Shown piece after piece: positions 1 to 21,665 of a stretch of 32,000 nt of DNA. The DNA lies in the NCBI RefSeq assembly GCF_000019345.1, contig NC_010503.1, positions 600,001 through 632,000 on the forward strand. The letters are read 5' to 3'. Origin of the DNA: Ureaplasma parvum serovar 3 str. ATCC 27815. Its GTDB lineage: Bacteria > Bacillota_I > Bacilli_A > Mycoplasmatales > Mycoplasmoidaceae. Under the pieces are notes generated by a model. That model ran no database searches. It was not told the DNA's origin and was given only the letters and a program-made list of their open reading frames with translations. Position numbers and translations under genes: made by a program. Numbering within the stretch: the stretch's first letter is position 1; every line of letters starts with the position of its first letter.

Positions 1-3000
1 ACCAATAATTGAATTTGAAGCGTTTTTATCAAAACTAAACACATAATCATGTGTATTTGTGCTAACTAATAATGGTTGAGTTTCAAAGGTTTCGTTATTA
101 TTTTGTGATTGATAAACTAATTTTAGTTTTTTAGCATTTAAATATGGATCAATTTTATTAAATTTAGCGTTAACTTTAATTTCTTCTTTATTTGATGCGT
201 AAGTATTTTTTATAGTTTTAATACTATTAATTTCAAAAATAGGTGTACTTGTTGTAAAAATAATTGAATGTGTTTGATCATTTGAATAAAACTGATCATT
301 ATATTTGTTATTAATATGTTTATAAGCATTATTTGGTTGTTGTTTAAATTCAACACTAACTAATATATATTTAGTATTTGGTTCTAAATTATTTAACGTA
401 AAGCTAAGTTTTGTTTGGTTATTTACATTCGCAACAACACCATTAGCTACAAAAGTCTTAGTTAAATCATCACCTTTAGCAAAATGACCTATAATTTGTG
501 AATTTGGTTTAAAAATATCACCATCATTTGTACTTATAGAACAATTAATATCAGCTGATGTTGAAGTAATATTTTTAACTTCATGTGAACTAATTGTTGT
601 TGCTGATGGATTTATAACTATTTTTTTATTTGTAATTGATGAATTAATTGGAATTTGATTTGTGTTTGTGCATGCAAAATCATTATTTTGGTCTGAGAAA
701 TAAATAGCTTGGATTTCATAAGCCTTATTAGCAATTAATTTGTCATGACCAATCTCCACACTAGCTTTATTATTAGTAATTTTAAAAGCACTACTAAATT
801 GGTCATCTTGTTTAAACTTATGACCACTTACACTATATTTAACACGAATGTACTTATTGTTTAATAAATTAGAACTTAATTCAATCGGTCAACTAATCTT
901 GGTGTTTTGATCATAATCAAGATCTTGTTTATTAATTGTAACTTTATTAACTTCACAATCTAAAGCAATTTTTTGATTTATATCTTGATTATTAGTACTT
1001 AAAAGAGCTAAAGGATGTTGGGTATCATTAATTTTAGCAAATGCGGCATGAATTGGTTTATTAGCAAAACTAATTTCAAAAATACCATAATCTTGATTTA
1101 AAGTTAAATTATCAATATCAAATTCACAATAGAATTGTTTATTTTGTTGATCATATTTAATTGTAATATTGTTAATTAAATTAGCATTTTGCGTTTGATT
1201 AAATAAAGCATATTTAACATTTAATAATTCTTTTGAGCAATCAGTTGAATTTAAAATACCATCAGGATCATTAATTATATATTTAACATGTGCACTAACA
1301 GATTGATTATCTTGAACTTTTGTAATTGTAATTGTTGGTTTTTGCACATCCATTTTATTTGGCGCTAACCCTAAAGCTAATGATAGATGATTTTCATTTA
1401 AATCTTTTTTAATTTCATTGTTTGCACCCTTGTTTTTAATTGCACAAATTTCACTCAACTCATATTGATGATTAGGTGTAATTTGTGATTTTAACAATTC
1501 AAATTCATAAACTTGATTTGAATTTGAATTAATGTTATTAGAGCTTTTAATTTCAATAGCTGGTTTGTTAGGATTTGTTTTATCTACAAATTTAGCATAA
1601 ATTTCATATCCTTCAAGTTCATGGCCTTCTTTATGTAAACCAACACTAAATTTAACATTTTCGTCTTTTGCACATTCATAAACTCCATTTACTAATTTAG
1701 AGTTTGATGCTAATTTAAAATCTTTAATGAAATTATGAGCAACCTTAGTTGTTAAATCTAGTTTTTCTAATTGTTTTTTAGTAGTTTCATTATATTGAAT
1801 TGGTGATGTTTTTACATTAGGTGAATGAACATGTGTTGTGCTAATAGCACCAATTTCATAAGTTGTATTTGGTGTTAAATCCTTTAATGTAACATTAATT
1901 TTATGATTTTTAACACTAACTTCACCAGCTTTTGAACTTGTTCAAGCTTGTTCACCTTTTTTGCGATATGTAATTGTAATTTGGTCATTATCAACTAAAT
2001 TATGATCTTGATCATCATAATCGAATGATAGATGGATTTCATCATACGTATTTGATCCACTTTGAATAACATTATTAACACTAATAGGTGTAGGTTCGAT
2101 ACTAAATTTAGCATCATCTTTATTAAAATTAGGTGTTAAATCAAGTGTATTAGCGTTTTTAAAATCAGCAGTATCACTAATGATTAACTTAACAAATTCA
2201 AAATCACGATTAGCAACTAAGCTAGTTTGATTATTATTAAAACTAAATTCTTTATTAAATGGTTTTGTAGTTGTATCTGAATTCAACAATACAGGATCTG
2301 ATTCAATTTGTTGGTTATTATTATCTTTATAAACTAATTTCGCATATTTGTTTTCTAAACTAGAACCTGTTTTATTAAAACCAACCATTAACTTAATTGA
2401 TTCATTCTTGTTAAAGTTTGTTTTTGTTGGTTTAACACTATTTAAAGTTGATTTTTCTAAAGTTTTTAAATCAATATTAGTATTATGATTATTAATTGGA
2501 TAAACTATATTGTCCTTATTAACGCCATTATAGATAGTATCACTTGGTTTGCTTGTGAACCAAACTTTTTTCACTCGATATTTAGTATTAGGTTTTAAAT
2601 TAATCAGTTGGGTTTTTAATAATCATTCATTATTTTCTTTTTCTAATGTTAAATCATAATCATGCGTTGTTGAATTAATTATTTGATCATGTGCATCAAG
2701 TTCATCAATACTGATTTTAGCGATTTTTAGATGGTTATTCTTATCTTCAAAAATTTGGTCATTTGAATGTAACAATAAACTTAAAGTGATTTTATTTTCA
2801 TCTGCATTTTGTGCTTTTAAATCAACATACGTACTTGATGGTTTAGTGCTTATTGTTTGTGGGTTTACATTATTTTTAATAACTACCATATTTGCATGAT
2901 TTTCATCAACATTAACATCTTTTGAATAGTATAAAGCAGCAAAAGTGTATAAACGATTTGAAATAAGTTGGTTTTGGTTTAATTCAAAATTTAAAGCAAT

Positions 3001-6000
3001 ATTATTTTTATTATTACCTATATTAGTTGGCGCAGGGATTGTATTAGTTCAAACGACACGATTATCATTACTAATATATTTTGCTTTAAAATGATATCCT
3101 TGAATTGTTTCAACTCGTGAATCTAAATTAATACTAATATTTTGTTTATTTGCTACATCAACATCAGTTAAGTTATTACTAAAACTTGCAATAGCAAATT
3201 TATTTGTAAATACGTATGTTTGTGTTGTATTAACACTAGCATCATAAACAACATTGTTTGGTTCTTTATAATCATTTTTAAAATTAATTTTATAAACACC
3301 ATTACCAACATCTTGGTTTTCATCAAAGTAGATTTTATAAACTTTATATTCTTTGTTAACTTTAATGTTATTAAGATTAGCAACAAAGAATTTTTGCCCA
3401 TCAATAATTTCTACTTTACCTTCATGTTCGCTAATCTCATTTAAATTAGCACCATTATTTTCATTTGGTTGAATATTAAACTTAAAGGTTTGATTTTCTT
3501 TTAAAACATCATCAAAATCATTGATAGCAAATTTTAGTTGTACTTTTGCACCATTATCACTAATTTCTTTAATTGGTGCACCAATAATCCCTAATGGTTT
3601 AGTTGGTAATAATTTAAAAGTTTTATTAAGATTTTCATATATTCATAGATCAATATAATCACTTTCACTAACGTTGCTTTGATTAAAATCTTTATTTTTA
3701 AGATAAACGACACGCTCTAAAGTGTATTCGCGATTACGTAATAAATCTTTAAATTCTCATTCATAATTTGCGTCATTTGCTGATGTAACTTTATGAATAA
3801 ATGAAATTTGCTTACCATCATTTTTACGTTTGAAAATAAATTTGATATCTTTATTAAATAAAGAAGCGCCAATGTTTTCGATTCGTAAATTTATTTTTAA
3901 ATCTGCTGTGTTTTTATTTTCATGATAAACAGGATCCATACTTAGACTTGTTATTTTAAAAACAGGGGCAAGAGTATAAAAACCAATTGGTCCTGATGGT
4001 AGTTCAAAAATGATAGGAGAAACATTCTTGGTTTTTTGATTCTTAATTGTAACACTCACAATTTCATAATCAAGACCAGCAATTAAATTAGTTGCCATAC
4101 ATTTTGTATATCTTTTATCTTGATCACTAATTGTAGCTGGGGTTGAAATAATATTTTGTGTTCCTTTAATACGATAATTGATATTAATTTCATCACCGCT
4201 ATGTAGTTGATTATCACTATCATCTAAAATTAATTTAATCAAGGCCTGGTTTTGTCATACATCAATAGCGTTTTTGCTAACTTTAATTTTTGCTGGCGTA
4301 GTACTAAAGCTTGAATTAACTAAAGAGGGATTTAAAGCTAAAATATTTTTTTGTTCATTAATAGCATCAAAATTTTGTTCATCACCATAAACAACTTTTA
4401 ATAAACGATAAAGGTGATTTGGTTTTAAATTACTAAAACTAAAATTTTGTAAACTAATTAAATTAGTTTGGTCTAATTTATTAACTAAAAGATCGTTTGT
4501 ACTTATTAGTTGGTGTTCATTGTCCTCAAATACTACTTTAACATATTTATTATTAAGCTTATTATTGTTCTTAATAATATTAATATTGAATTTAACATCA
4601 TATATGCCATTATTATTTTTTGGATAAGCATCTGCTAAATTACTAATTTCATTAACAATTGATTTTGATAATGTATGAATAGTTTTTTGATTATCTTCAA
4701 TATTGTTTAAAAGAATTTCATTATTATTGTTGTTATTAATATTAACATTAGCTAATTGTGGTTTTTGTTTTAAACTAACACTTGTTAAACGATAAGTATG
4801 ATCTGCTAATAAATTAGTAATTACCCCTGAAGCACTAAAACTATGTTCATCTTTTTTAACTAATGTTGTTTGTGTTTTTAAAACTGGTTGGTTTTTATCT
4901 ACTAAATTTTCAAAACATAATTCAACAAGCATTCCAGGTTCTAAAACTTGATCATCATTATTAATGTTAAAATCATAATTAAATTGATCTTCATCAACAT
5001 TGTGTGTTTTAAATTCTAATAGTTGGGTAGTTGAAGCTAAAGTACTAAAATCATAAGTTTTTGAATGCTCTTTTACAAAAATCTTCTTACCTTGGGTTTC
5101 ATCATTATTTTGATTTTGATCATTAAAATAATAAATTCCTGCAAAATTGTATTTACGATTAGGTGTTAAATGATTGAAATTTAAATTAATATGTGCTAAA
5201 TCAACATTATTTACACTAGCATAATCACTTCAAATTTTTTGGTGGTTATTATCAATATATAAAGCTCGTAAATATTGGTCTTTTAATAAGTTTTGACTAG
5301 ATTTTAATTCAACATCAATGCTTGCAGTAGGATTTAAATTTGTATTAGGTTGATTAACATTAATGTTGTTAACAAATAATTCGTTTGTAAAACTTAGAAT
5401 TTTACTTGGATTTGAACTAGCATCATAAATACTATTTTTATTAGAATTATTACTAATAGCATTGGCAGGTTGAATTTTATTTTTTGTTGCATAATTAATA
5501 TTATCAACAATGTATTTATGATTTGGTTGAATTTTAAATGTGTTAGTGTTTTCTACACTAAATTCAAGTGTTTTATTATTATTAGCGTCAACATTGATTT
5601 TACCAATAACATTATGAGTTGTTTTATCTTTTTCATCATGGAATGTAATTTCTAAAATACTATCTTGTTCTAAAAAATCATTAGGATCATTTATTTGAAG
5701 TTTTAAATTAATTTTATTTAAATTTGAATCTGGTTTGCGAACTAGTTTAGTATCTATTGTTAATTGCTCGTTAACTGATGCTGTTTTAAAAGTGTTTGTA
5801 ATTTTTTGATTATTTAAAAAACTAAATTTATAATCATTTTGATTAGGTTCAGTATAAATCAGTTTTTTAAATGAATAAATACGATTATGTTTTAAATCAT
5901 CTAAATTAAAATCATATTCATTAACACCATAATTTAAAACAACAAAGTTATTAGATACTAAATCATGTTCCCCATCGTTATACACAATTTTAGCTTTACA

Positions 6001-9000
6001 ATTATTTAAACTTGTTCCATCATTATTAATAACAATATGAACACTATTAGTTTTTACATTCGCATCTACTACATCACTTGCAGTAACACTAACTAAATCA
6101 AAACTTGCTTTTGGAGTACTAAAACCTGGTGTTTTTTGTGAATCAATTAATACATGATTATCATCACTATTATTAACATTAAAAGCACCTAATACTGGTT
6201 TTTGTCTAAATTTAACAGATTTGATCTGATAATTAACTTCTGGGCTTAAATTATTTGCATGAATTTTAACGCCTCACGTTTTTGTTATATCATCATATTC
6301 TAAATTAGATGTAAACATTAAATCATTTTTCGTATTATCTTTATTGCCAATAGTAACATCAATAACTTGATCTTTTGCAAAAATATCATCGGTTGACACT
6401 AATGGTAAATATAAATCCGCACTAGCAGGAGTGATGTTATTAATAGTTACTTTTGGTGAATTAAGATTGATTTTTGAAGCTGTTTGAATTTGTAAAGGTG
6501 TTATATTGTTCATATTAACCTTATTAGCTGATGTTATCTTAACAGTATTAACATCTTTGAAATAATATAACCCATCAAATTTATAAATACGGTTTGATTT
6601 TAATGCATTTTTGTCTGGTAAATTAAATTCATATTCATTATTAACATTATTAATTGAAACAGGATCAGATCAAACAACATCACCATTATTATCAATATAC
6701 TTTAGTTTTAAATAGTATTCATTCATTAAATTCAATGAACGTTTAAGGGTTAATTTAACTTTATAATTTAAAACATTTGTTTTTACATCTGTTATATTTG
6801 GCTCATAATTATAAGTATTAACTAATAATTCATTACCAAATTCACTCAATTGTGGTTGAGAATTATTTAACTCATAAACTTGTTCATGATTTTCATTTTG
6901 ATTAAAAGCAGCGTTGATTGGTTTATTAATCAACGTGATATTGTTAATATGATATTTATGGTTTAATGAAACATTAGGAACATCAAACTCTAAATTACGA
7001 TTCCCGTTTTGATCAATCACTATTTTTTGATTATCTGCATCAAAAAGATTATTAGGATCATCTAAATCACTAATTTTAATAGTAAATGAACTACCATCAC
7101 TGTCAACTAAGACATGATCATTATCAACTAATGGAATTGATAATCTAATACTATCATCAGTACGTTTAATTACTTGTAAACTATTATTTTTTAAACTAAT
7201 AATTCCTGTTGGTTCTGTTTTAAAACCATGACTTAAATCAGTGCTATTTTTTATCACCGCATCAGTGCTTTGTAAATCATTTTGATCTTGTGCATATATT
7301 AATTTAACAAATTTATAAACACGATTTGATAAAAAACCATTTGGTTTATTATTTGTTAATGTGAATTTATAGTTACTATTGCCAACATTTAATAATAAAG
7401 GTTGAGATAAACAAACTTCATTATCTTTACTAATATAAACTAATTGGGCTCAAACGTTATTTAATGTTTTATCTTTTTGTGAGAAAACAATTTTTACATT
7501 AACATCAAGTTTATTTTCATCTTTTTTAATTACTTCATTTGAACTAATTGATTCAATATATGTTCCAATTAATTTCGTACTAAATTGATTATGTTTTTGA
7601 TCAAAAGGGGCAAATACAACTTTTTGATACGCATCATTTGCTAAACCTAAGGCCTTTAATTCTAACAATTCATAATTATTATTAGATACTAAATTATTAA
7701 GTTCAAATTCTAACGTACCACTTTTGTTGGTTTTGTTAATTCCTTTAACATACCCTATTGTTTTATAAACTTGTTGATTATTCTTATTTAAATAAGTTAA
7801 TTCAACTGGGTTACCAATTCTTAATTTTTGATCTTGATCTACAAAATCAATTGCTATTCGTGCATCTTGTGATTTAATAATTTGTTTAGGATTGTTAACA
7901 TCAAAATTAACTATAGTAGCATGTGGAGTTGTACCAAAAATTAATGGAGTTTTAATTGGAGTTGAATAATGAATTTTATTGTTGTTTTCATCATTAAAAC
8001 CCAACAATAAATATTTACTATTGCCTTTTAAATTTTGCAAATGTGCTACATAATTTTTTTTCACTAAATCATAATTTAGGTTAGCAACTAAATCTGGTTC
8101 TAATGCGTTATTATTTTCATCTAATAAACGATAAGTAATTGTTTTGGGGTGCTTATTAGTTGTACTAATATTTAAATTTAATTTAGTTGCATTAGGATCA
8201 GTATCATATTGATGATAATCCTCTAATACCAATGTATTAGTAGAAAAAATTCTAAATGTATAACCAATAACTTGATCTTTAATAATATTGATTTTAGTTT
8301 GACTATGAGCTTCAGCGTTTAAATCAGTAAGATTTAAATTATTATTTTTAAAAACTAAATTTTTAATGTAATAAGCAGTATCTGTTTGTAAATGATTAAA
8401 ATCAAAAACTAAACTATTATTTTTATAATCAATTAAGCCATAAGCACTAACACAATGTTTTGGATCGTTTTTTAAAGCAAGTGTTAATTTTAATCGTTCA
8501 TTTAAAGCTAATTTATTAGGGTCATTAACTGTTAAAATTAAAGTTGTGGGTTTGTTTTGAATAACACTAGGATTTTTAACAATAATTTTACGGCCCAGAT
8601 CAACTTCATTATTTAATGTTTTAACTGAATTATCAACATCATCTGAACTAATAATTGTTTCTTTAGGAATGTGATATTCATCTTCTATGCTAATTGAATC
8701 AAAATGATAAATCTTATCTTTTGTAAAATTAGGGTTGTTTGATAGATCAATTTGTAGTTGGTGTTTATTATTAACAATTGCAGGAATTTTTATCAAATTA
8801 CCATCAACATCTTGGTAATTAACAAAAACGTCTTCGCCTTCTTCAACATTTTTTGGCACATCAAAAACTAATTGGTTATTAACAATTTTACCAATATTTA
8901 GTTTGTTAACAATAATTTGTTTTTGATCCAAATCAGCAACATTAATTACTTTTTGACCATCATATTTAAGAGCAATTAGTTGATATTTATGATGGTTAGG

Positions 9001-11358
9001 TAAAACCTCATCACTAGTTATAAATCGTGTTTGACCTAATGAATCAATAATAGTTTTTGCTTTAACATGATATTCTTTTTGATTTTCATCAATAAAAGTT
9101 GCATCTAATGAACGATTAAACAAATTCTTATCAAAAGTTAGTAGGTTTAAATTTTTATTTGCATCTTGTTTAATAATTGCAAGTGGTTTAATAATGCTAA
9201 TTCTGTTTAAAGGATTAATTTCGTTTGAATTTAATAAAATTTGCTCATGCTTGTTTTTATCAACAATATTTAACAATTGATAGTGGTGGTTTGCATCTAA
9301 ATCTTTTGTGTTAATACTTATTTTATTCTTATTTAAATCAACTTTAGTAGGAACAAAATAATCTTTATTATTTTCATCAATAAAATGAGCAACAGCATCT
9401 TGAGTTGTTATTTTATTTAAATTATCATTAATGTCAATAATTAAATTTCCTAAATCATCATAGGTGTATGTATTTAATTGTTGTAATTTATTTACATCGA
9501 CTTTTTCTAATAATCTATCTTTTCTATCTAAATCATTAACATTAACGATTGGTTGATTATTAACATTAGTAATTTTAGTCAATGTATAAGTGTGATTATT
9601 AGGTAGTAAATGATCATCATTTGTTCTTAAAATTAATTCTTGTTGATCATTTAATTTACCAGTTAATTGATAAGGATGATGATTTTCATCTTCAAAAGTT
9701 AAGACAACAGACTTATTAGCTAAATCAGGGTTTAAAAGTTGAATTTTATAATTATTATCTTCTAATGCCCCAACAATCGCAGCTGGTTTACTAAACTTTG
9801 TTTTTTGATTAATTGCAAGTTCATAATCATTTAAAACATTTGTTTCTGGCTCTTCTAAACTAATAACATGTTTTAGTTTATATGTATGATTTAAGTTTAA
9901 ATCAGAAGTGTTAATTACAATATTGCCATTTAGATCAACCTTTGTCAACACTTTATGTTCATTATTTTTTTCATCAATAAACACGGCTTCAACTTGATCA
10001 TTAGCGAATTGTTTAGAATCTACTTTAGCATTAAAAATTAAATTCCCTTTATCATCATAATGATATGGATCATTTAATGCATTAGTGTTTAATTTATTAA
10101 TAGTTTTAGCACTTTCATTTAAATCATCTAAGTTAGCAACGCGTTTTGCTGGAGAGGTATTATTAATGCTAATATTATCTAGTTTATATAAGTGTCCATC
10201 TTTTAAATTGTTTAAATCTACAGTAATTTCACCATTATTAACCTTAGCAATAATATTGGTTTTATCGTGGTTTTCGTTTTCAAAACTAAGTGTTAATAAT
10301 CGATCATTTAAACTTGAATCAACTTGAATATGAAGTGCTTTTTGTAAACCATTTTTATCAGTTTCAATTTTTATTTTATTTGGTTTATGGACAATATTTT
10401 GATGTGCCGCATCTAATTTATTAGGTTTTATAACATCATGATTATCCTTATCAACAATTTGAATTAGTTTATAATCATGGTGATTTTCTAAATCTTTTGT
10501 TAATAAACGCACAAGACCATCAGTACCAACTATTGCCTTTAAAGTGTGTAATTGGTGTTTTTCATCTTCAAATAAGGCATTAATATTTTGATTAGCTAAA
10601 TTTTGTGAAACACGTGCGTTAATAATAACGTTTCCTTGATCATCAAAACTGCGTGTTTTATCAATACCACGAATGGGTTCACTAATTTCATCTAAATTAA
10701 CAATTTTTGTGTTTTTATTATCTTCTTTTAAAGTTAAACCTACGAATTTATAAAAATTTCCTAAAGGTAGTTGTTTAGTTCCAACAATTACATTACCATT
10801 ATGATCAACCTGAATATTTTGAATATATTTAGCATTATTTTGATTAATAAAATGCGCAGTCAAATACTGATTACTCAATTCATGGTTTAATTTAATTTCA
10901 AAAAATTTATCGCCTTCTTTATTAAAATTAACTTTAAAGACATTAGGACGATCGACAAGTATTTTTTGTTGCCATACCAACTCATTATTATTGATTAATG
11001 TATTATTATTTTCATCAACAATACGATCTAAAACTCAAGAATTATTCAAACCTAAACTCGTTGTGTCAATTCGTGCTACTTCTTTATTTCTTGTAATTAA
11101 AACTGAAGTTTCCTTGCCTAATTTATCTTTAAAAATCGCATAAATCTTTTGGTTAATATCATTATCTCTTGTAAATAAACGAACCTTAATAATTAAATTA
11201 CCATCTTTTGTATATTCATAGTATTTACTAAAAATTTGATTGGAATGCTGATTTGCGAAACGTAATACAATTCCTGTAATTACACCAGCTCAAATTAAAG
11301 AACTAATTGTAAGTCCAGTAGCTATTTTGGCATTACGTTTTTTATTTTTATTATTCAT
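1..11358 (-). CDS. Giant membrane-anchored modular surface protein. The 5' end is complete and the 3' end lies beyond the window (at least 3,786 codons).
   Basis: Nine minus-strand track ORFs (889-1497, 1942-2574, 2623-2889, 3757-4242, 4255-4932, 5230-5985, 6274-6513, 6670-7257, 7450-10980) share one frame (upper coordinate divisible by 3). I hand-translated the gaps 1-888, 1498-1941, 2890-3756, 7258-7449 and 10981-11358 and found only TGA, never TAA or TAG. The ATG is at 11358. The N-terminus MNNKNKKRNAKIATGLTISSLIWAGVITGIVL has a basic stretch followed by a hydrophobic anchor. The body carries a recurring L-x-(P/S)-N-(H/R)-x-Y-x-(L/F) motif. Confidence 0.8.
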
Positions 11359-11402
11359 AAATAATCATCTCTTTTTTATAAAATTTTCCTGTTTTTCAGT
11401 CT

Positions 11403-11420
11403 AAAAAAAAAAAAAAAAAA
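11403..11420. repeat. A18 homopolymer (T18 on the sense strand of the giant gene) in the divergent intergenic region.
   Basis: Counted directly: 8 A at 11403-11410 plus 10 A at 11411-11420, flanked by ct and c. It lies 45 nt upstream of the ATG at 11358 and 166 nt upstream of the ATG at 11586. Confidence 0.95.
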
Positions 11421-11455
11421 CTAATTTATTTTGTGTAAACTGTTAAACTACACAA

Positions 11456-11464
11456 ATTATACCA
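11456..11464 (-). promoter_or_regulatory. Candidate extended -10 box (TGGTATAAT) for the giant gene.
   Basis: The reverse complement of attatacca at 11456-11464 reads TGGTATAAT. If this box is used, the T18 tract falls in the 5' leader. This is motif-only evidence. Confidence 0.35.
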
Positions 11465-11585
11465 TTTATCCGCTTGCTCTCTTGTTACAAAATACACAAA
11501 TAATGTAAGTTTTTACTATATTGAAAATATCTTTGGTTATAATTTAATTTGATAATAAATTTAAATTTTATGATAGGTTAAAAAT

Positions 11586-12719
11586 ATGAAAAAAAACACA
11601 CATAAGAAACTTTTGCCTTTAATTTCTATTTTTGTTTTAATCCCTTTGAGTTCACTTGTTGTAATGTGTTCAAAAACTAAAACAAAAATAGTAAAAGAAC
11701 AAAAGCAAATTACTGCTTCATCGTTAAGATCTACTGATATTGATTTAACATCAATTAACCTTGAAATCTATTTTGCTAAATTTGATGTTAATGATATTTT
11801 AGTTAAAAAATTCAGCATTGAATTAGAAGATGATAAGGGAAATAAGATAAATGTTGATATAAATCCCGAATATAACAAAAATTTACAAATGCTAAGTTTT
11901 AAATTAGAAAACTTAAAACCAAACACTACATATAAAATTACAAAGTTTAATATCACAGGACATGAGGTTGATCTAACTCAAATAAAAGATTCATTATTCA
12001 CTACTAAAGCTGAGAATCTTTTACCTGATATCCCTAATTTACCTAATAGTGTTGGTATTGAAATTAAAGATATTAAAACTAATTCACTTAGCAATGATGC
12101 AACAAAAGTGAATGTTAATGTCAATTTAGAAATTAACCAATCAACATTAGAAAATCAATATGCCCGATTAGTTTATAAAAGCAATGATAATTCTTGAAAG
12201 CTATCAAATACTTTAAAAATTGCTGAAATTAAAAATAGTAATTTTGTTTTAGATGGTTTAATATCAAACCGTAAATATCTTTTTAAAGAATTAATTATTG
12301 GAAGCCAAAGTGATTTAAATTTAACTAATGCGCAAACTAAAATAACTACTAATAATGAGCTAAGTTTCACTACAGCTCCAAAACCTGTTGAAATAAAAAG
12401 TGTTTTAATTGATACAAAATTTGATAATCATCCAAGTAGTTTAATTAATTTGAAGTTTAATGATAGTGAGAATAATTTAAAAGAAAATGATATTTTAAAA
12501 ATTAAATATAAAAAAGTAGGACCAAATGAAGTCATCTTTGAAAAAACAGTTCGATTAGCTAATAATTTTGAACTATTATTTGAAATTGAAAATACAAAAA
12601 AGAATGAAAAATATGAAATCTTAAGTTTAGAATCAAACACTAAACATGGATATAATGTTGCACCAAGTATATTTAATTTTATTTCTAATGATTTACGCAC
12701 TTTTGAAATCAAAGGTTAA
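11586..12719 (+). CDS. Putative lipoprotein (377 aa) carrying the same module and motif as the giant protein.
   Basis: Track ORFs 11586-12197 and 12450-12719 are in the same frame. I translated the intervening stretch and it is open except for TGA at 12195. The signal peptide MKKNTHKKLLPLISIFVLIPLSSLVVMC has Cys at residue 28, a relaxed lipobox. Motifs seen: LKPNTTYKITKF, SNRKYLFKELII, NEKYEILSLE. The stop TAA is at 12717-12719. Confidence 0.8.
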
Positions 12720-12745
12720 TTTGAATAAAAATCTAGTTACTCATT

Positions 12746-12783
12746 AAAAAAACGGCACGGCGCCGTTTTTTTTTTTTTTTTTT
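12746..12783. terminator. Bidirectional rho-independent terminator between the convergent lipoprotein gene and rpsD.
   Basis: The structure is A7, CGGC stem, acggc loop, GCCG stem, T18. The GC stem can extend through A:T pairs. It sits between the stops at 12719 (+) and 12818 (-). Confidence 0.8.
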
Positions 12784-12817
12784 GATTGGTTAATTGCTTA
12801 TCTTGTAATATAAGTAA

Positions 12818-13426
12818 TTACATTAATCGGTTGTATCATTCAACAACGTAAGCTTCATTTACATCTGCTGGTAATTCATTACGTTCTGGTAAACGTGCTA
12901 ATTTTGCAACTTTTTTTTCTTTATCGATTAATTCAATAAAATCAGCTGGTTTGTTTAAAGTATTTTTAATTAAAGGTATTTCTAATGATTTAGCCTTAAG
13001 AGCAATTGTACTACCTACTTCAACTAGTGCTGAAGGGATGTTAACCTTTTTATTGTTAACCAAAACGTGTGAGTGATTTACTAATTGACGTGCAGCACGA
13101 CGTGTTGGAGCAAATCCAGCACGATAAACTAATGAATCTAAACGTGATTCAAGAACTTGTAATAAATTTAAAGTAAGTACGCCTGGACGGCCTAGTGCAA
13201 CTCTATATAAACGTCTAAATTGACGATCATTCAATCCATATAAAAACATTAACTTTTGTTTTTCAACTAATTGTTGGCCATAATTTGATAATTTAACTTT
13301 TTTATTACCGTGTTGTCCTGGACCGTATGTTCTTTTTTTACCAGAATTAAATTCTTTATTATTTTCTAATAAAGAAAATCCTAAACGGCGTGATTTTTTA
13401 TAAATACTACCTGTATAACGACTCAT
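12818..13426 (-). CDS. rpsD: 30S ribosomal protein S4.
   Basis: MSRYTGSIYKKSRRLGFSLLE... is a canonical S4 N-terminus. The track ORF ends at TGA (12836-12838). Reading it as Trp gives ...AYVVEWYNRLM, then TAA at 12818-12820, which matches the conserved S4 C-terminus (IVEFYSR type). Confidence 0.95.
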
Positions 13427-13691
13427 GATTATATTCTCCTCAAATTTATTTTAAGCATATAATCACAAAAATTTAGATTCTATAATTTTTTATTTAATTT
13501 TGATAGTTTCAGAGAAGTCAGCAACTTTCTTACTAATAAACATATTTTTTTAATATGAATTAAATAGGCAAATGATATATCTAATAAGCTGATTAATATG
13601 CTATTAACTATTATAATATATTTTGTGATTTAAAAAATACAAAATTATTTGATTATAATTTAATATACACCATCTATAAAGGAATTTGTTA

Positions 13692-15383
13692 ATGTCTTTA
13701 ATTTATCTTCTAATAGGTTTTATTTTATTATTTTTACTTATTTACTCTACTTTTGCATTATTGGACATTTGAACACTTAGAAAATATAACACATTCCGTC
13801 AAAATTTTTTTAATTTTGATCAATTAGTCAATACAAAATTTAATGATATTTATACTCATACAGATAATATCTATGCACGTACAAGTAAACAAAAAATAAC
13901 AATTATTAATAAATACCTAATTGCAATTAATAATGAATTAGATTTTCATAAAAAAAGTCTAATTAAATTACAAGATTATCTTGAAAATCATAAATTATTC
14001 TCTTATTTATCACTTATTAAGTTTATTAAAGCAAATGAAATTAAAATTAAAAATAATGTAGATGAATTTGTAGATTTAATTCAATCTTTTTGAAATGATT
14101 TTATTATTATTGATCAACAAGAAAGAAAAATTGAAGATACCCATAAGAAATTAGATTTAATGTATAAAGATCTTATAAGTAAATATAGTATTCCAAATTT
14201 AAATTATCAAAAAGCAATTAATTGAACTACTGATTCATTTAATAATTTAATTGAAACTAAAATTAGTATGAATTATTCAAAGTATAATTATTTTTTAGTT
14301 CAATTAATTCATCGTATTAAAAATAAAGTTCATTTATTAAAAAATATCATTGTAGTTTTAAATTCAATCAAAATTATTGAAGAAGCTAATAAAAATAGCT
14401 TACAAAAAGTGCAAGAAATCACCTTTTTGACTGATGACAAAATTAAAGAATTAAGACAATTTAACCATGATTTTAATGATTTTATTAATAACCAATTAGC
14501 TGATTTTATTTATAATTCAAAATTTGTTAATTTAAATAACCTTTATTTAAATAGTTATTATCAACAAGCCTTAAATTGACTTAATATTAGTTCGCAAAAC
14601 AATATTGGTGGGGCTGTTTTTGATAAATATAAAAAACGTTTTTATGATGATTTTAGCTTCATTAATAGCACTATTATTAAAGTAAATAATATTTTAGAAA
14701 AAATAAAGAGCACTTCAAAAAACTATCAATTAAACCAATTAAACCAATTAATTTTAGACTTAGATCAAGCTAATCAAAAAATTATTAATTCTAAAATTGA
14801 TAAAAATGATATCAAACAAAATATTGATTTCATTATTTCAACACAATTATTCTATGATAATTTAAAAAATTTATTGTTTTATTTAAATGATTTAAATGTT
14901 AAGTTAGCAAATTGGAATCACCACTGAAATACACTAGTTAAAAAAACTATCACTATTTATAATAAAAAAATCGAACTTGAATCTTATATTAAAAACAAAG
15001 ATATATTTTTTAATTTATCTAATGAAATTTTTTTAGATGATTTCGAATATATTGAAAATATATTTCAAAAAATAAATGCTTCAAATAGTTTTGATCCCCA
15101 AATTTTAACCAATCATGAGTTAATTATTCACCAATTAAATTTAATTAATGAACGTTTTGATTATCTTATTGAATATATTAACCAAACCCAATTATGGATG
15201 CCAAAAATCTATGATTTGCTTTATAATAAAATAAATTATTATGGTATCAACTATGAATGAATAAAAAAAGAATTTCAAAATTTAAATTGAAACAATGTGC
15301 CTCAAGCATCTAAATTATTAAATGAATTTATTGATAATATTATTATTGCTGATCACGCTTTAAAACGTTTAAAATTTAATTAA
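13692..15383 (+). CDS. N-terminally membrane-anchored protein, probably helical or coiled-coil (563 aa), with EzrA-like architecture.
   Basis: The ATG at 13692 is in frame with track ORF 14268-14579. Several TGA codons are read through and TAA is at 15381-15383. The N-terminus MSLIYLLIGFILLFLLIYSTFALL is a single TM segment. The rest is a K/E/N/L-rich, probably helical sequence. Its size and topology resemble EzrA (562 aa in B. subtilis), but homology was not tested. Confidence 0.75.
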
Positions 15384-15387
15384 TAAC

Positions 15388-15417
15388 AAAAAATACTAGC
15401 TTTAAGCTAGTATTTTT
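15388..15417. terminator. Bidirectional hairpin terminator between the EzrA-like gene and the 3' end of the tRNA cluster.
   Basis: AAAAATACTAGC-tttaa-GCTAGTATTTTT is a perfect 12-bp stem with a 5-nt loop. It has A/T runs on both sides. Confidence 0.75.
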
Positions 15418-15430
15418 AATTTTATTTAAA

Positions 15431-15506
15431 TGGTGGTTTCGGACAGAATCGAACTGTCGACACACGGATCTTCAGTCCGTTGCTCTACCGACTGAGCTAC
15501 GAAACC
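15431..15506 (-). tRNA. tRNA-Phe (GAA).
   Basis: The reverse complement GGTTTCGTAGCTCAGTCGGTAGAGCAACGGACTGAAGATCCGT...CCGAAACCACCA has anticodon loop CTGAAGA and an encoded CCA. Confidence 0.92.
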
Positions 15507-15507
15507 A

Positions 15508-15583
15508 TGGCGGTCCTGACGGGAGTCAAACCCGCGATCTCCTCTGTGACAGAGAGGCATGTTAATCACTACACCACAGAACC
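15508..15583 (-). tRNA. tRNA-Asp (GTC).
   Basis: The reverse complement GGTTCTGTGGTGTAGTGATTAACATGCCTCTCTGTCACAGAGG...GGACCGCCA has anticodon loop CTGTCAC. Confidence 0.92.
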
Positions 15584-15585
15584 AT

Positions 15586-15662
15586 TGGTTGCGGGAGAGG
15601 GATTTGAACCCCCGACCTCCAGATTATGAGCCTGACGAGCTACCAAGCTGCTCTATCCCGCG
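15586..15662 (-). tRNA. tRNA-Met (CAT), initiator type (fMet).
   Basis: The reverse complement CGCGGGATAGAGCAGCTTGGTAGCTCGTCAGGCTCATAATCTGGAGGTCGGGGGTTCAAATCCCTCTCCCGCAACCA is near-identical in layout to E. coli tRNA-fMet. It has the C1-A72 mismatched end. Confidence 0.88.
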
Positions 15663-15719
15663 ATAATAACTTTATAATGTTGTGTGTAAACATTGATAAA
15701 GTATTTTATATTTATATAA

Positions 15720-15812
15720 TGGCGGAGAAAGAGGGATTCGAACCCCCGCGCGACTTGCATCGCCTCTCAGTTTTCAAGACTGATCCCTTCAGCCGGACTT
15801 GGGTATTTCTCC
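15720..15812 (-). tRNA. tRNA-Ser (TGA), class II with a long variable arm.
   Basis: The reverse complement GGAGAAATACCCAAGTCCGGCTGAAGGGATCAGTCTTGAAAACTGAGAGGCGATGCAAGTCGCGCGGGGGTTCGAATCCC...GCCA has anticodon loop CTTGAAA. Confidence 0.9.
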
Positions 15813-15880
15813 ACAGTATATACTAAACTACAACCTTTTTATTATAACATAGTTTAGTACATTAATTTTATATATTTTAT

Positions 15881-15958
15881 TGGTGCTTCTAACAGGACTT
15901 GAACCTGTAACCAACCGATTATGAGTCGGGGGCTCTAACCAAATTGAGCTATAGAAGC
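15881..15958 (-). tRNA. tRNA with CAT anticodon, most likely tRNA-Ile2 (lysidine-modified CAU).
   Basis: The reverse complement GCTTCTATAGCTCAATTTGGTTAGAGCCCCCGACTCATAATCGG...TAGAAGCACCA has loop CTCATAA and a GGTTAGAGC D-arm, which is Ile-like. Its position matches the Met-Ile-Ser-fMet-Asp-Phe order known from M. capricolum and B. subtilis clusters. The Ile versus Met identity is inferred. Confidence 0.8.
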
Positions 15959-15960
15959 AA

Positions 15961-16037
15961 TGGTGGCTGGACAGAGATTTGAACTCTGAACCTCCCGGGT
16001 ATGAACCGAGCGCTCTAACCAGTTGAGCTATCCAGCC
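15961..16037 (-). tRNA. tRNA-Met (CAT), elongator.
   Basis: The reverse complement GGCTGGATAGCTCAACTGGTTAGAGCGCTCGGTTCATACCCGGGAGGTTCAGAGTTCAAATCTCTGTCCAGCCACCA has loop TTCATAC, as in Bacillus elongator Met. Confidence 0.88.
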
Positions 16038-16041
16038 AAAA

Positions 16042-16118
16042 TGGTCGGGAAGACAGGATTCGAACCTGCGACCCCTTGGTCCCAAACCAAGTGCACTACC
16101 AAGCTGTGCTACTTCCCG
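16042..16118 (-). tRNA. tRNA-Pro (TGG).
   Basis: The reverse complement CGGGAAGTAGCACAGCTTGGTAGTGCACTTGGTTTGGGACCAAGGGGTCGCAGGTTCGAATCCTGTCTTCCCGACCA has loop TTTGGGA. Confidence 0.92.
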
Positions 16119-16165
16119 AACGATTAAGATAATATTTCATAATACTATCTTTTTAAAAAATTTAA

Positions 16166-16242
16166 TGGCGCACCCTAAAGGAGTCGAACCCTTAACCTTC
16201 TGGTCCGTAGCCAGACGCTCTGTCCAATTGAGCTAAGGATGC
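16166..16242 (-). tRNA. tRNA-Arg (ACG).
   Basis: The reverse complement GCATCCTTAGCTCAATTGGACAGAGCGTCTGGCTACGGACCAGAAGG...GGGTGCGCCA has loop CTACGGA. Confidence 0.92.
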
Positions 16243-16245
16243 ATA

Positions 16246-16320
16246 TGGAGGTGCCAGTCAGATTCGAACTGACGAATAAGGAGGTTGCAGCTCCTGACCT
16301 TACCACTTGGCTATGGCACC
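16246..16320 (-). tRNA. tRNA-Cys (GCA).
   Basis: The reverse complement GGTGCCATAGCCAAGTGGTAAGGTCAGGAGCTGCAACCTCCTTATTCGTCAGTTCGAATCTGACTGGCACCTCCA has loop CTGCAAC. Confidence 0.92.
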
Positions 16321-16404
16321 AAGAATAAAATTAATTCTTTGGAACTAAACCTAATAAATTTTAAATTAATTTTGTGTTTTGAAATATTTAAAAACACATA
16401 TAAG

Positions 16405-16433
16405 ATAATAACAAAATTAAACTTAAAAGTCAA
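16405..16433 (-). promoter_or_regulatory. Candidate sigma-70-type promoter for the tRNA cluster (TTGACT-N17-TATTAT).
   Basis: On the minus strand, TTGACT is at 16433-16428, a 17-nt spacer follows, and TATTAT is at 16410-16405. This is about 85 nt upstream of tRNA-Cys. Motif-only evidence. Confidence 0.5.
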
Positions 16434-16440
16434 TCTTTTT

Positions 16441-17232
16441 TTATTTTTCATAAATTACAATAGGTGTAATATTAGTTGGAAAATTTGTTTCATCATCAAT
16501 TTCAACTAAACTAGCACAAAAAACATATTTTTCATCACTTGGTTCTAATATAAAACGTTTATTTGGATCACGAAATCGTTGAATAATACTACTTGGATTT
16601 GCCCCAATCACGCTATTAGCAGCACCACACATTCCTAAATCAGTTTGAAAAGCCGTATGATCGACAATTCTAGCATCATTTGTTGGAATATGTGTATGAG
16701 TACCATAAACTAAAGACAATTTACTTTTAAAATCTAAAAAAAGTGCATTTTTTTCACTTGTTGTTTCAGCATGAAAATCAACAATATGAATCGGTGCTTC
16801 ATTAAAAGCAATAATTTTATCTAAAGATTCAAAAGGATTTGTTTGTAAACCTTTCATATCAATAGAATTACCTAATAAATTAGTTACACGAATCATTTTT
16901 TTATTACAATAAAAAACTCGTGAACCAGAACCTACTAAGTGATACTGATGCGTATTAATAATATTATATGGACGAATAATATTTGTTTTGGTTGTTAGGA
17001 TTTCAAAAATATCAGGATGATCTCAAGTATGATTGCCCATAGTAATACAATCAATTCCATAACCTAATAATTCTTCATAATGTTTTCAACACAAACCGCG
17101 ACCATGTGTTGTATTCTCAGCATTAGCAATTACAAAATCAATTTGATACTCTTGTTTTAGCTTGGGCAATTCATTGGCCACTGCTTTTCTTCCTTGTTTT
17201 GAAAAAATATCTCCAATAGCTAAAATTTTCAT
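16441..17232 (-). CDS. ymdB: YmdB-family metallophosphoesterase (2',3'-cyclic-nucleotide phosphodiesterase-like), 263 aa.
   Basis: Track ORF 16441-16896 extends in frame through TGA codons to the ATG at 17232. The N-terminus MKILAIGDIFSKQGRKAV...VIANAENTTHGRGL...ITMGNHTWDH parallels B. subtilis YmdB (MRILFIGDVVG...INGENAAHGKGL...ITMGNHTWD). Confidence 0.88.
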
Positions 17233-17235
17233 TTT

Positions 17236-19467
17236 TTAACCTATTCTTCTTACGATTGTTTTATGATTAAAATTAATTTGTTTTGGTTGACGATATTTAC
17301 TGAAAGCAATTGTTAAGATATCACCATCAATTCCAATAATAACACCATCACCAAAACTTGTGTGAACAATTCTTTCACCAATTTCAAAATCGTTTTTCAT
17401 TGTTTGATAAAAATTATCTTCAACTTCTTTTTGTTTTTGTTTTGAATCGAACCATGAACGTTCTTCTTGTTGTTTTAAGAATGATTTTAATGGCATATCC
17501 TCTGGTTTATTATTTTTAAAACTACTATTTATAATCTTTAAATTATTAAAACCAATTTCATTAATAAAACGACTTTCAAATACTTGTCTTCTTGCTAATG
17601 GATCATAACAACAAGCAGATGAAATATAAAGATTTTTTTTTGCTCGTGTTAAGGCTACATAAGCAATTCTTCGTTCTTCTTCAACTCCTTTAATTGGATC
17701 ATCATTAATTGCTCGATCAGAAGGAAGAAGTCCTTCGTTCATACCAGCAACGAAAACGTTTTCATATTCTAGACCTTTAGAATTATGAACTGTCATTAAT
17801 AAAACATTTTCTTTACTATCTTTACCATCCTTATTCAAATATAAAGCAATCGAATTTAAATAATCATTAATCGTGTCATCTGGATGACGATCAACATACA
17901 TTTTCATAGCGCGTTTTAATTCATAAACATTATCGATTTTATCTTCTGCTTTTTCGTTTTCTAATAAATAAGCTTCATAGTTAACTTTTTTGTAAATTAA
18001 TTCTAAAATCTCATGAATTTTTAAATCTTCCATTTCATCACGGATTTCTTTAATTAAATTAACAAAATTTAAAATATTCTTTTTTTGTGTGTTATTTATT
18101 AAATGGTTTTTTTCAACTTCAGCTAATGCTTCAAATAAAAATAAATTATTATTTATTGCATAATGTTTAACATGTTCAAAAGTAGTTGGACCAATCGCAC
18201 GACGTGGTGTATTAATAATCCTTAAAAAAGATAGTTCATCTAAATCATTAACTACTTTTAAATAAGCAATCATGTCCTTAATTTCAGCACGTTCATAAAA
18301 CTTTTTACTGCCAAGAATTGTATAAGGAATGCTCTCGCGCATCATTGATTGTTCAATCGTACGAGAATAGTGATTGCTTCGGAACAAAACAGCGATTTGG
18401 TTAGCTGGCGTTCCTTCTTCTAACAATTCTCTAATTTTTCTAGCAATTCAATTAGCTTCATCAATTGGGTTTTGCCCTCGTAAATAAATTGGTAAATTAT
18501 TGTCATTAGTATTAAAAGCAGTTAAATTTTTTTTATAATTGTTGTTATTAGCATCGATTAATCTATTAGCTGTATTTAAAATTGGCTGAGTTGAACGATA
18601 ATTTGTTTTTAAAATTGTTACTTTTGTATTCTTAAAATTTTGACTAAAATTATTAATAATTCATTGTTCAGCACCTCTAAATGAATAAATCATTTGATCA
18701 GGGTCGCCAACCACAAATAAATTTTGATGTTTAGTTGCTAATAAACTAATTAAATCATATTGAATTTTATTAGTATCTTGAAATTCATCAACAAGAATAT
18801 AATCAAATTTATTTTGTCATTTTTCTAAAACTTCTGGAAACTCAATAAATAACTTATGAGTTAAATTGATCAAATCATCAAAATCAACATAATTTAATTT
18901 AAAACATCGATCACAATAAATCTTATAAATATCAACTAATCTTTGTGCATCATTTAAATCAACCAATTCTAAATACTTGTGATTTTTTTCATTTAGCATA
19001 TCGTTTTGATCAAAAAATTTATTTTTAACTTTACTAATCGTTTTAATTATTTTCTTAATAACTTGCGATTTTTTTTCAATGTTTAATTGATCAAAAATTT
19101 CTTTAAGCAAAACTTCTTGATCGTCTGTATCAATAATTTTAATATTGTTATGATAATTTAAATAATGAATATCTTGTTGTAAAATTTTTACACACATTGA
19201 ATGAAAAGTACTTAAATAAGGAATAGAAACGCCAATTGTTTTTCCAACACGTTCTTTCATTTCATCAGCAGCCTTATTAGTAAAAGTAAAACCTAAAATC
19301 CGTGATGGATGAATATTTTTTTCAGTAATTAAATAAGCAATACGTAAAGTTAAAACAGATGTTTTTCCTGTCCCTGCCCCTGCAATTACTAATTGCGGTC
19401 CTAAGTCTGCTGTAACTGCTTCTTTTTGTTCTTGATTTAAGCGTGAATAATCAATTCCTAATCCCAT
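17236..19467 (-). CDS. pcrA: ATP-dependent DNA helicase of the PcrA/UvrD family (743 aa).
   Basis: Track ORFs 17236-18426 and 18817-19467 are in the same frame. Motifs seen are AGAGTGKT (Walker A), and in the joined gap DEFQD, GDPDQ-IYSFRGA and TNYRS. The C-terminal part has VALTRAK. Confidence 0.92.
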
Positions 19468-19491
19468 AAAAGCTTCTCCTTATTTTTCATT

Positions 19492-20313
19492 TTATATTTT
19501 ATCTAGTTCTTGAATTAAATTATCGATTTTTTGAATCTCAACTTCACGTTTTGTTTTATGTTTAGGCGCTTGTTTTGGTTTCTCATAATGCATCCATAAT
19601 AAAACAACTTTTGCTACTTGATCATGTAAAGCACGTTTTTTTGAATTCATAAACATGTGAATTACAATAATACAACTAACTAAACCCATAATTGAATATA
19701 GACTTTTAACTAAAATACTTAAAATAGCCATAGTTGTAGTATTGGTGAAATTATCATTAATTTTTAAAGATAAAATTGACTGCACATAAGCTTTTAAATC
19801 TTTAATTTGATGATAATACTCTTTTAGCTCAGTCTCATTCATAGCTTGAATTGATTTAAAACTTGCATCAGCAAAAACAAAACAAAATCCCATCGCTAAT
19901 AAATTAATTATGGTAAAAATTAATCAAGTTAATAAACTATGTTTAATTAAAGCAATAAATAAAATTTTTTTATCGTTTTGTTTTACTAAACTAATCATTC
20001 TAATCGAAAATGCTCATCGAAATAAAGTATAAGATTTACAAAATAAAGGAATAATAATGTAGTATGTAGAATAAACAAAAAAAGCAATTATTCCCATTAA
20101 GAATAAACGTCAAGGTTCAGGAGCAAGCTCATCATTATTAACAAAAATATCACTAATTTTAAAATTACTATTAATAAAAACTAATAAAGATAATAAAAAA
20201 GCAATAATGGAAATAAAAATATAATCTAAAACACTAGCGCTAGCACGCCTTAGTGCACCAACAACGGGATATTCGATCGTATTTTCTTGTTTTAATGTTG
20301 ACTTATCACTCAT
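19492..20313 (-). CDS. RDD-family integral membrane protein (273 aa).
   Basis: Track ORFs 19492-19893 and 20110-20313 are in the same frame. I translated the gap 19894-20109 by hand and it is open, with three TGA codons (20110-20112, 20014-20016, 19924-19926). Features seen are GALRRASASVLDYIFI near the N-terminus, multiple hydrophobic segments, and KRALHDQVAKVVLL near the C-terminus (RDD signature positions). Confidence 0.75.
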
Positions 20314-21252
20314 TTAATTTAATCCCTGTTTTGATTTTAAATAATATTTTAAAATATTAATTTTAAACTTGCGAACATATAAATTATTCTCAAAATTAGC
20401 AAAATAAATCTCTAAATACTTTTTAGCATTTGATAAGGCATGACTAATAATCATTGTTCGTTCTTTAATTTGTTTTTTAGAATTAATATTAATTGTGTAT
20501 AATTCATAAATTTTTTTCAAAAAAGAATGAAAACAAATTCCCGTAATTCAATAACACAATTCGTCCTTATAAAGATCTAATAAATCATCATTACTAAATC
20601 TTATGTATAATTCATTAATTTGTTGTAGTAAATCATAAACATTATAACCAACCTCACCACTATTATTGCTAATGAAGTTAATATTTACATTTCTTCATGA
20701 ATTAAATTTGGTAAAAAGATCATAAATAAATAAAGCAGGGTATCATTTATCATTATAAAAAGCTAGTTTGTTTTTTCTAATAAAATCTAAAGCAATAATT
20801 TTATTAGAAACTGATTCTCATAATCCAACTAATATCTCTTTATTCAAACTATCAAAAACCAATGATGGATTTTGGTTAACATTATCATTTAAATTAAAAC
20901 TAATAACATCGTAATCTTTCTCTAAAACCGAAAACAACAATGAACTAGCATCTAAATTTAATTCAACATGACCTCCTAAATATCAAATGTATTTACCGTG
21001 AGCATATTTCGTTGCTAAATTATATGCATAAGCATTGCCTTGTGTTTCATTTAAATAAAAATATTTAATCTTAGCATTAGTATTTTCAATTAATGGTTTT
21101 AATGTTTTAAATAAATTATAATCACTAGCATCATCAATAATAATTAATTCAATATTTTTTTGATTTTGATTTAATAAATCTAAAAAATAATTAAAATTTT
21201 TTTTTAGATAATGAGTTGTCTTTGATAAATAAAAAGCAATTGTTAATAACAT
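20314..21252 (-). CDS. Family 2 glycosyltransferase (312 aa).
   Basis: Track ORFs 20314-20520 and 20983-21252 are in the same frame, and I checked the first TGA junction by hand. NIELIIIDDASDYN is the GT2 DxD-type nucleotide-sugar region. The stop (20314-20316) abuts the RDD start (20313). Confidence 0.8.
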
Positions 21253-21294
21253 GATTTGACCTCATATCTTATTATTATACTATTATATAAAAAT

Positions 21295-21327
21295 AAAACT
21301 AGAAGCAAAATAAAATGCTCTAGTTTT
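21295..21327 (-). terminator. Hairpin downstream of tRNA-Arg(UCG), just upstream of the GT2 operon promoter region.
   Basis: The minus strand reads AAAACTAGAGC-attttatttt-GCTTCTAGTTTT (one bulged base) followed by a T-rich run. A TATAAT box (complement of 21274-21279) and TGAGGT precede the ATG at 21252. Confidence 0.5.
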
Positions 21328-21338
21328 ATTTTAATTAA

Positions 21339-21415
21339 TGGCGCACCCAAAGAGACTCGAACTCCTAACCCTATGCTTCGAAGGCATATATTCTAACCAA
21401 TTGAACTATGGGTGC
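21339..21415 (-). tRNA. tRNA-Arg (TCG).
   Basis: The reverse complement GCACCCATAGTTCAATTGGTTAGAATATATGCCTTCGAAGCATAGGGTTAGGAGTTCGAGTCTCTTTGGGTGCGCCA has stem TATGC/GCATA and loop CTTCGAA. Confidence 0.85.
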
Positions 21416-21448
21416 ATTATTTTATATATTTTATATTATTTTAATAAC

Positions 21449-21481
21449 AAAAAAAAAAAAATCTGCAACCATGCAGATTTT
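21449..21481 (-). terminator. Intrinsic terminator between the two tRNA-Arg genes.
   Basis: The plus strand reads A13-ATCTGCA-acca-TGCAGAT-TTTT. On the minus (tRNA) strand the 7-bp hairpin is followed by T13. Confidence 0.7.
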
Positions 21482-21491
21482 AGTGTATCAA

Positions 21492-21568: not shown

Positions 21569-21665
21569 AAATACAATTTATTATAACTTAAATCTTATTA
21601 AATTAATTAATTTAATTTTCATTTTTAATATTTTAATACTAATTATTTAGTGGAGGTATTAATTT

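Follow-up and report, generated by a model that had tools for sequence, protein, structure and literature searches.

Mollicutes are without mismatch repair, and slippage-prone homopolymers in front of their surface-protein genes are a known kind of element, with the poly(A) tract of Mycoplasma hyorhinis vlp as one example and the poly(T) tract of M. arthritidis MAA2 as a second. In Helicobacter pylori, the T-tract of sabA acts as a rheostat, and a variable G-repeat in the leader of tlpB is targeted by RepG.

In the vlp system, the poly(A) tract is situated in the promoter beside the −10 box and its length sets transcription ON or OFF (Citti & Wise 1995, as summarized in PMC10502178). The same source places a (TA)n repeat in the promoter spacer of M. 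mycoides Vmm (Persson 2002, as summarized in PMC10502178). For Ureaplasma itself, an (AT)9 repeat between UU171 and UU172 was proposed as a switch (Rocha & Blanchard 2002, as related in PMC3047005), but the switch shown experimentally at UU171/172 was a DNA inversion and not the repeat (PMC3047005). The displacement of that repeat by an inversion is a caution for the locus described here. Recombinase inversion at inverted repeats of 21–25 nt operates at both mba and UU172 of Ureaplasma (PMC3047005, PMC3511179, PMC3599477).

The DNA analysed here, referred to as the window, is a stretch of 32,000 nt from Ureaplasma parvum serovar 3 str. ATCC 27815 (NC_010503.1, positions 600,001 to 632,000), and positions are those of the window unless given as genome positions. 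It contains an A/T homopolymer, the focal tract, ahead of a giant surface-protein gene. The tract is like vlp in being an A/T homopolymer of about 17–20 nt upstream of a Mollicute surface-protein gene and in being variable by slippage. It is unlike vlp in its position, since it follows the predicted start of one, conserved promoter (P1) by about 30 nt or precedes the −35 box of a weak alternative (P2). With Vmm and UU171/172 the locus shares the presence of simple repeats 5′ of Mollicute surface genes, and the fifth member of the protein family described below has (TA)13; the Vmm and UU171/172 repeats, however, are dinucleotides in the promoter spacer, unlike the focal run. As in sabA and tlpB, the homopolymer lies outside the −35/−10 spacer, and those two tracts tune expression by degrees with length, but they belong to another phylum and rely on DNA phasing or a small RNA. 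A sabA-type placement directly upstream of −35 holds only if the weak, non-conserved P2 is active. The mba and UU172 systems are from the same organism and also concern surface variation, whereas at the focal locus the recognition sequence was absent and no inverted configuration was seen in about 30 loci. The final comparison is with terminators of the same genome that have long U tails. These resemble the focal tract in having a T-run, in length range and in polymorphism, but unlike it they abut a G+C-rich hairpin at a gene end.

Organization of the intergenic region

The original prediction proposed an uninterrupted A18 as a candidate slipped-strand phase switch, located in a 227-bp gap between a giant gene on the minus strand and a small, related lipoprotein gene on the plus strand. 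The sequence agreed with this layout. The A18 is uninterrupted at 11403–11420, and the gap extends over 11359–11585 between the ATG codons at 11358–11356 (−) and 11586 (+). A domain search found DUF1410 in both flanking products. The box predicted upstream of the run is present as ATTATACCA on the plus strand at 11456–11464, equivalent to TGGTATAAT on the minus strand. For the predicted hairpin, both arms were located (TTGTGTA at 11431–11437 and TACACAA at 11449–11455), but the start predicted from TGGTATAAT falls inside its 5′ arm. The features of the locus are listed below.

11403–11420, minus strand: homopolymer, A18 on the plus strand and T18 on the giant-gene strand, 44 nt before the giant ATG
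11456–11464, minus strand: extended −10 box TGGTATAAT, P1 of the giant gene, predicted start at ~11449
11431–11455, no strand: inverted repeat TTGTGTA-N11-TACACAA, overlapping the predicted start and including the TTGTGTAAA/TACACAA motif
11375–11403, minus strand: weak alternative promoter P2, with TAGACT (11403–11398), a 17-nt spacer and TATAAA (11380–11375)
1–11358, minus strand: 5′ part of the giant gene, whose product has a TM anchor at its N-terminus (…LIWAGVITGIVLRF…) and repeats of DUF1410
11586–12719, plus strand: DUF1410 lipoprotein gene, 377 aa, with its own −10 TATAAT at 11538–11543
12746–12783, plus strand: bidirectional terminator, a GC hairpin then T18, between the lipoprotein gene and rpsD

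The giant gene is a single ORF of 5803 aa under code 4 (genome 593947–611358, minus strand), and its product is basic at the N-terminus and carries a single hydrophobic anchor and numerous DUF1410 repeats. The 377-aa lipoprotein has one DUF1410 domain and is identical to the copy at the same map position in AF222894, which is U. parvum serovar 3 ATCC 700970 (PMC3047005). An effect of the tract on the lipoprotein promoter is unlikely because the tract lies about 118 nt upstream of the lipoprotein −10 box.

Two short reading frames were noted near the giant-gene start. A short out-of-frame uORF (AUG AUU AUU UAU GAA UAA) at 11351–11368 on the minus strand overlaps the giant start codon. An upstream ORF across the T-run, with an ATT start and poly-Phe content, was dropped as too speculative.

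Promoter prediction and comparison with a second species

The locus was compared with that of a U. urealyticum-like genome (G026). The lipoprotein ortholog there is only 66 % identical, and the region is therefore diverged strongly enough for conservation to be informative. Two blocks were conserved, the lipoprotein TATAAT (11538–11543) and TTTTGTGTAAA…AAACTACACAAATTATA, the latter consisting of the palindrome and the minus-strand TATAAT. The inverted repeat is the best-conserved block of the intergenic region between both species, and everything from the palindrome to the giant ATG differs between the window and G026. No run of at least 9 nt was found at the G026 locus, with A18 and T18 both absent. 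The giant ortholog of G026 is intact at 5822 aa, and the absence of the tract beside it indicates that the tract is dispensable for the gene. The tract may thus be young, a U. parvum-specific addition that G026 does not share.

P1 was taken as the promoter of the giant gene because it is the sole promoter conserved between the species. By the usual spacing, transcription would most likely start at ~11449, giving a leader of 91 nt with the T-run at about +30 to +47; the T-run is 36 nt downstream of the TGGTATAAT box. P2 escaped the promoter scan because its −10 box has no T at −7, and G026 does not share it. The tract is directly upstream of the P2 −35 box, and P2 would give an 11-nt leader beginning at an out-of-frame AUG. 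With the starts predicted in this way, the tract is outside the −35/−10 spacer of either promoter. The original prediction had cited the vlp poly(A) tracts and the M. gallisepticum GAA repeats as precedents, and the comparison lent no support to a promoter mechanism of either type, as the one promoter that both species share lies upstream of the tract and the intact G026 ortholog has no tract. A vlp-type ON/OFF mechanism is not supported for the focal run.

RNA structure was assessed for the leader and the hairpin region, neither of which folded better than its shuffles (z-scores +0.84 and −0.76). The focal hairpin comprises 9 bp, two of them G-C, with a computed energy of −7.2 kcal/mol, and its end is 9 nt upstream of the T-run, so that no stable G+C-rich hairpin stands immediately before the run. 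Since the predicted start at ~11449 is within the 5′ arm, the hairpin would be incomplete in the P1 transcript. A terminator scan of the window reported none at the focal run, and an Rfam search gave no match.

Length variation among strains

Loci from other strains were fetched via two identical neighbour proteins, the lipoprotein and ribosomal protein S4, and alleles were counted over 23 distinct U. parvum samples, the window included. The focal tract had 10 alleles in the 23 assemblies, as follows.

A10: 1 of 23, serovar 1
A16: 1 of 23
A17: 1 of 23
A18: 5 of 23
A20: 1 of 23
A9CA4: 7 of 23
A12CA4: 1 of 23
A15CA4: 3 of 23
A16CA4: 2 of 23
A17CA4: 1 of 23

These alleles span 10–22 nt without clustering, and the C interruption was present in more than half of the assemblies. 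The 300-bp intergenic alignment was otherwise identical, bar one base beside the run. In a 2.3-kb alignment of 19 assemblies there were nine SNP columns, and all indels were confined to two homopolymers. One five-SNP haplotype had A10, A16, A17, A18 or A20, and another SNP haplotype had A12, A15, A16 or A17, then CA4. The finding of many tract lengths per SNP haplotype indicates that the tract mutates far faster than single bases, and it is in line with the earlier statement that an 18-mer is long enough to slip. The strain comparison of tract length, which had been set beforehand, found that the tract was not invariant across the 23 assemblies. In assemblies of short-read metagenomes, homopolymers may be miscounted by 1–2 nt, an error that the difference between A10 and A20 exceeds.

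The T18 tail of the terminator (12766–12783), 1.3 kb away, had lengths of T15 to T19 across these assemblies, with variation inside haplotypes as well. Because this tail is equally variable, length polymorphism shows mutability and not function. The lengths of A18 and T18 varied independently among strains, and their equal length in the window is therefore a coincidence.

Apart from AF222894 and serovar 1, the giant gene was one ORF (5782–5803 aa) in every spanning contig, at tract lengths from A12CA4 to A20. Contigs with A9CA4 end within the giant gene, and the copy beside A10 in serovar 1 was called as 2096 aa. The integrity of the gene at many tract lengths is uninformative on any effect on expression. 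In AF222894 an additional T within a T5 run (window 8949) breaks the giant gene into ORFs of 805 + 5005 aa. This split and the shorter call in serovar 1 may be real frameshifts or errors of old assemblies.

Genome-wide distribution of long A/T runs

A census of runs was made over the whole genome (751,679 bp, 25.5 % G+C), in which 0.018 A/T runs of at least 18 nt would be expected under base composition alone. The run lengths were bimodal, with 337 runs of 8 nt, 29 of 9 nt and one of 10 nt, none of 11–12 nt, and then ten of 13–18 nt. This bimodality makes the focal tract part of a distinct class, which in human ureaplasmas covers A/T runs of 13–19 nt. Of 19 genomes from the genus, 16 had runs of at least 14 nt, and G026 had 16 runs of 13–17 nt.

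Of the ten long runs, six stand immediately next to a hairpin and are terminator-like, whereas the focal run and those at genome positions 45227, 537538 and 553382 do not. All seven runs located outside convergent gaps and tRNA ends were upstream of genes for lipoproteins or TM-anchored proteins, a class that by a crude test accounts for about 22 % of predicted genes. Three of these seven 5′-region runs double as terminator tails, belonging to the preceding gene or to an orphan hairpin.

The sister runs also varied among strains (8 and 15–19 nt at one, and 14–17, 15–19, 15–19 and 16–18 nt at others). In this genome, polymorphism extends to every run above about 13 nt, and by itself it is not evidence of phase variation. 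Six sister runs were kept in position in G026, where they measure 13–17 nt, with a flank divergence of about 2 %. The purity of these six conserved runs was used as a test for selection, and the zero interruptions observed were not significant (P=0.16).

Two of the sister runs are situated close to −10 boxes. The T18 at genome 45227–45244, which precedes the gene for an 838-aa lipoprotein with a Myco_protease domain, is followed after 4 nt by a perfect TATAAT; it is T16–T17 in other strains and T13 in G026. It is the most vlp-like tract of the genome, closer to vlp than the focal run is. The T-run at genome 576471 is 18 nt before a perfect TATAAT, in the −35 region.

The anchored protein family and the TACACAA motif

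Five proteins, of 5803, 4735, 775, 1025 and 1313 aa, have the anchor W-[AS]-[GA]-[VA]-I-x-[GA]-I-V-L. The genes of four of them, each starting a transcription unit, have a run of 16–18 nt located 44–81 nt before the ATG. The fifth, encoding the 1313-aa protein, has (TA)13 against its ATG (genome 539973–539998). The leader of the 1025-aa gene has the exact 17-mer TTTACACAAAATAAATT in common with the focal leader, and in both leaders the run that follows is equally far from the ATG. Read on the gene strand, the run after TTTACACAAAATAAATT is A17 in the 1025-aa gene versus T18 in the giant gene, which argues against an RNA-level role of the U-run. If both runs act alike, their job would be strand-symmetric, such as DNA spacing, stiffness or mutability.

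Other members of this family differed among strains. The second giant DUF1410 gene (genome 555594–572858) is split into 4735 + 925 aa both here and in AF222894, and is single, at about 5754 aa, in several other strains. In three assemblies (loci L089, L095 and L096) the 5′ end of the 1025-aa gene, the T17 tract and the motif are deleted (region of genome 553332–553400).

To identify motifs associated with the runs, intergenic DNA at most 150 nt from runs was compared with all other intergenic DNA, over 6,000 to 22,000 k-mers. TACACAA, TACACAAA and TTGTGTAAA were top at k=7, 8 and 9, respectively, with P about 1e-10, which survives correction. The TACACAA motif was found at every one of the seven 5′-region loci but was absent from the three that are purely terminators, and the focal palindrome consists of two copies of it in inverted orientation. 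TACACAA(A) may be an operator for a regulator. A reading of the TTGTGT/ACACAA half-sites as an NrdR box was dropped, as the outer halves, compared by eye, mismatch that palindrome.

Interpretation of the focal tract

Chance is a poor explanation for the family placement and the motif association, which fit the pattern of Mollicute contingency loci such as the poly(A) of vlp and the (TA)n of Vmm. We therefore lean, tentatively, towards reading the tract as a length-dependent tuning or contingency locus of known kind. Its length would change presumably by replication slippage, and a change in length would shift expression of the giant gene by degrees and not between ON and OFF, by way of either the mRNA leader or the upstream DNA geometry. 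What the sequence data show is the tract itself, its hypermutability, its placement relative to sequence elements and its ties to a class of runs and to a gene family; the start site, any effect on expression and reversibility within a clone are inferred. As a candidate phase switch, the tract thus retains part of its original standing. It slips, it belongs to the 5′ region of a gene for a surface protein and paralogs have like tracts, but the promoter-spacer mechanism is not supported. The evidence against a switch is that the alleles are wide and unclustered, that the C interruption occurs and that the gene is intact at many lengths, all as for a neutral tract. The lack of the run in G026 and its placement away from the promoter spacer count against a switch as well.

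A neutral by-product is only a little less probable. Under this explanation, a run in an AT-rich genome that grows past about 10 nt may expand to a mutational equilibrium near 15–19 nt and drift with no effect on either flanking gene, and its placement reflects long, weakly constrained intergenic DNA together with shared paralog ancestry. The unclustered alleles of 10–22 nt with a common interrupted form and the intact giant gene at many lengths are what it would predict. Further points in its favour are the like length range and strain polymorphism of the terminator tail, the intact gene of G026 without a tract, the position outside the spacer of the conserved promoter, the A-run of the paralog where the giant gene has a T-run, the long runs of 16 of the 19 genomes of the genus and the non-significant purity of the six conserved tracts (P=0.16). 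It is less compatible with a placement that is strongly non-random, in that four of the five family members have a run and the fifth has (TA)13, and that all seven 5′-region runs precede surface-protein genes. The co-occurrence of runs with TACACAA (P about 1e-10) and the six runs that keep position and length between two species also count against it. Improbable, in our view, is a device of the vlp or sabA type, with P2 as the real promoter and the T-run as a UP-like or phasing element that sets its strength or ON/OFF state. The required geometry can be read from the sequence, vlp provides a precedent (PMC10502178), and at the sister loci 45227 and 576471 a T-run is in the −35 region of a perfect TATAAT, at 4 and 18 nt. 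The P2 box, however, is missing its −7 T and is not conserved in G026, and its 11-nt leader would begin at an out-of-frame AUG. The tract is also upstream of −35, so its length leaves the −35/−10 spacing unchanged, and the alleles are unclustered by helical phase.

The remaining explanations assign the run a role in termination or in rearrangement. An AU-rich hairpin followed by U18 could act as a terminator, attenuator or insulator that stops rpsD antisense transcription or read-through, or attenuates P1, with tract length setting the efficiency. Six of the ten long runs do abut a hairpin and resemble intrinsic terminators, the sister giant gene has a hairpin followed by T16 in its upstream region, and the focal hairpin reaches −7.2 kcal/mol. 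This role is nevertheless very unlikely for the focal run, given a hairpin that contains no more than two G-C pairs, stops 9 nt short of the run and overlaps the predicted P1 start with its 5′ arm, the fold z-scores of +0.84 and −0.76, a terminator scan that was negative at the run, and the A17 carried by the paralogous leader. The A18 and T18 could also be viewed as a pair of inverted repeats through which the 1.3-kb lipoprotein segment, P1 included, would invert and so uncouple the giant gene from its promoter. In this strain the runs do match in length and stand in opposite orientation, and ureaplasmas use short inverted repeats for inversion (PMC3047005). We nonetheless rejected this inversion as extremely improbable, because all of the approximately 30 loci have one gene order and orientation, the run lengths vary independently among strains, and the published 25-nt recombinase site was not found in the window with up to 3 mismatches allowed. 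Both runs are also missing from G026.

It is conceivable, though unlikely, that human ureaplasmas have, besides the known recombinase inversions, a second, simple-repeat system of surface variation in which a TACACAA(A)-type operator plus a hypermutable 15–19-nt run or (TA)n controls the TM-anchored DUF1410 giants and several lipoprotein operons. The focal A18 would then be a recent, U. parvum-specific addition to it.

Significance and related repeats

U. parvum has been linked to preterm birth and neonatal lung disease. To our knowledge, the surface variation demonstrated in this species comprises only size variation and recombinase inversion at mba and UU172. If the runs tune or switch the DUF1410 giants, surface proteins of about 5,000 residues would form a further layer of antigenic variation, and tract length would be a simple genotypic marker for clinical isolates. 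Our literature searches turned up no description of homopolymer switching in U. parvum and no study of the DUF1410 giants; Rocha & Blanchard 2002 may list the repeats. To the best of our knowledge, the genome-wide view obtained here by sequence analysis is new. It combines the bimodality of run length with the terminator tail as a control, the pattern within the protein family and the co-occurrence with TACACAA.

Several other simple repeats were observed in this genome and its relatives. Runs of (AT)7–10 are present upstream of lipoprotein genes at genome 210166, 270439 and 297432, and a (CT)10 repeat at genome 549756–549775 is within an ORF resembling a restriction-modification methyltransferase. 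In the terminator hairpin at genome 407520–407561, the inner stem and loop are reverse-complemented relative to G026 (locus L051; gccata versus tatggc), with the outer stem kept. In another species of the genus (G002), A/T runs reach 25 nt, at 317995–318019 and 356533–356557.
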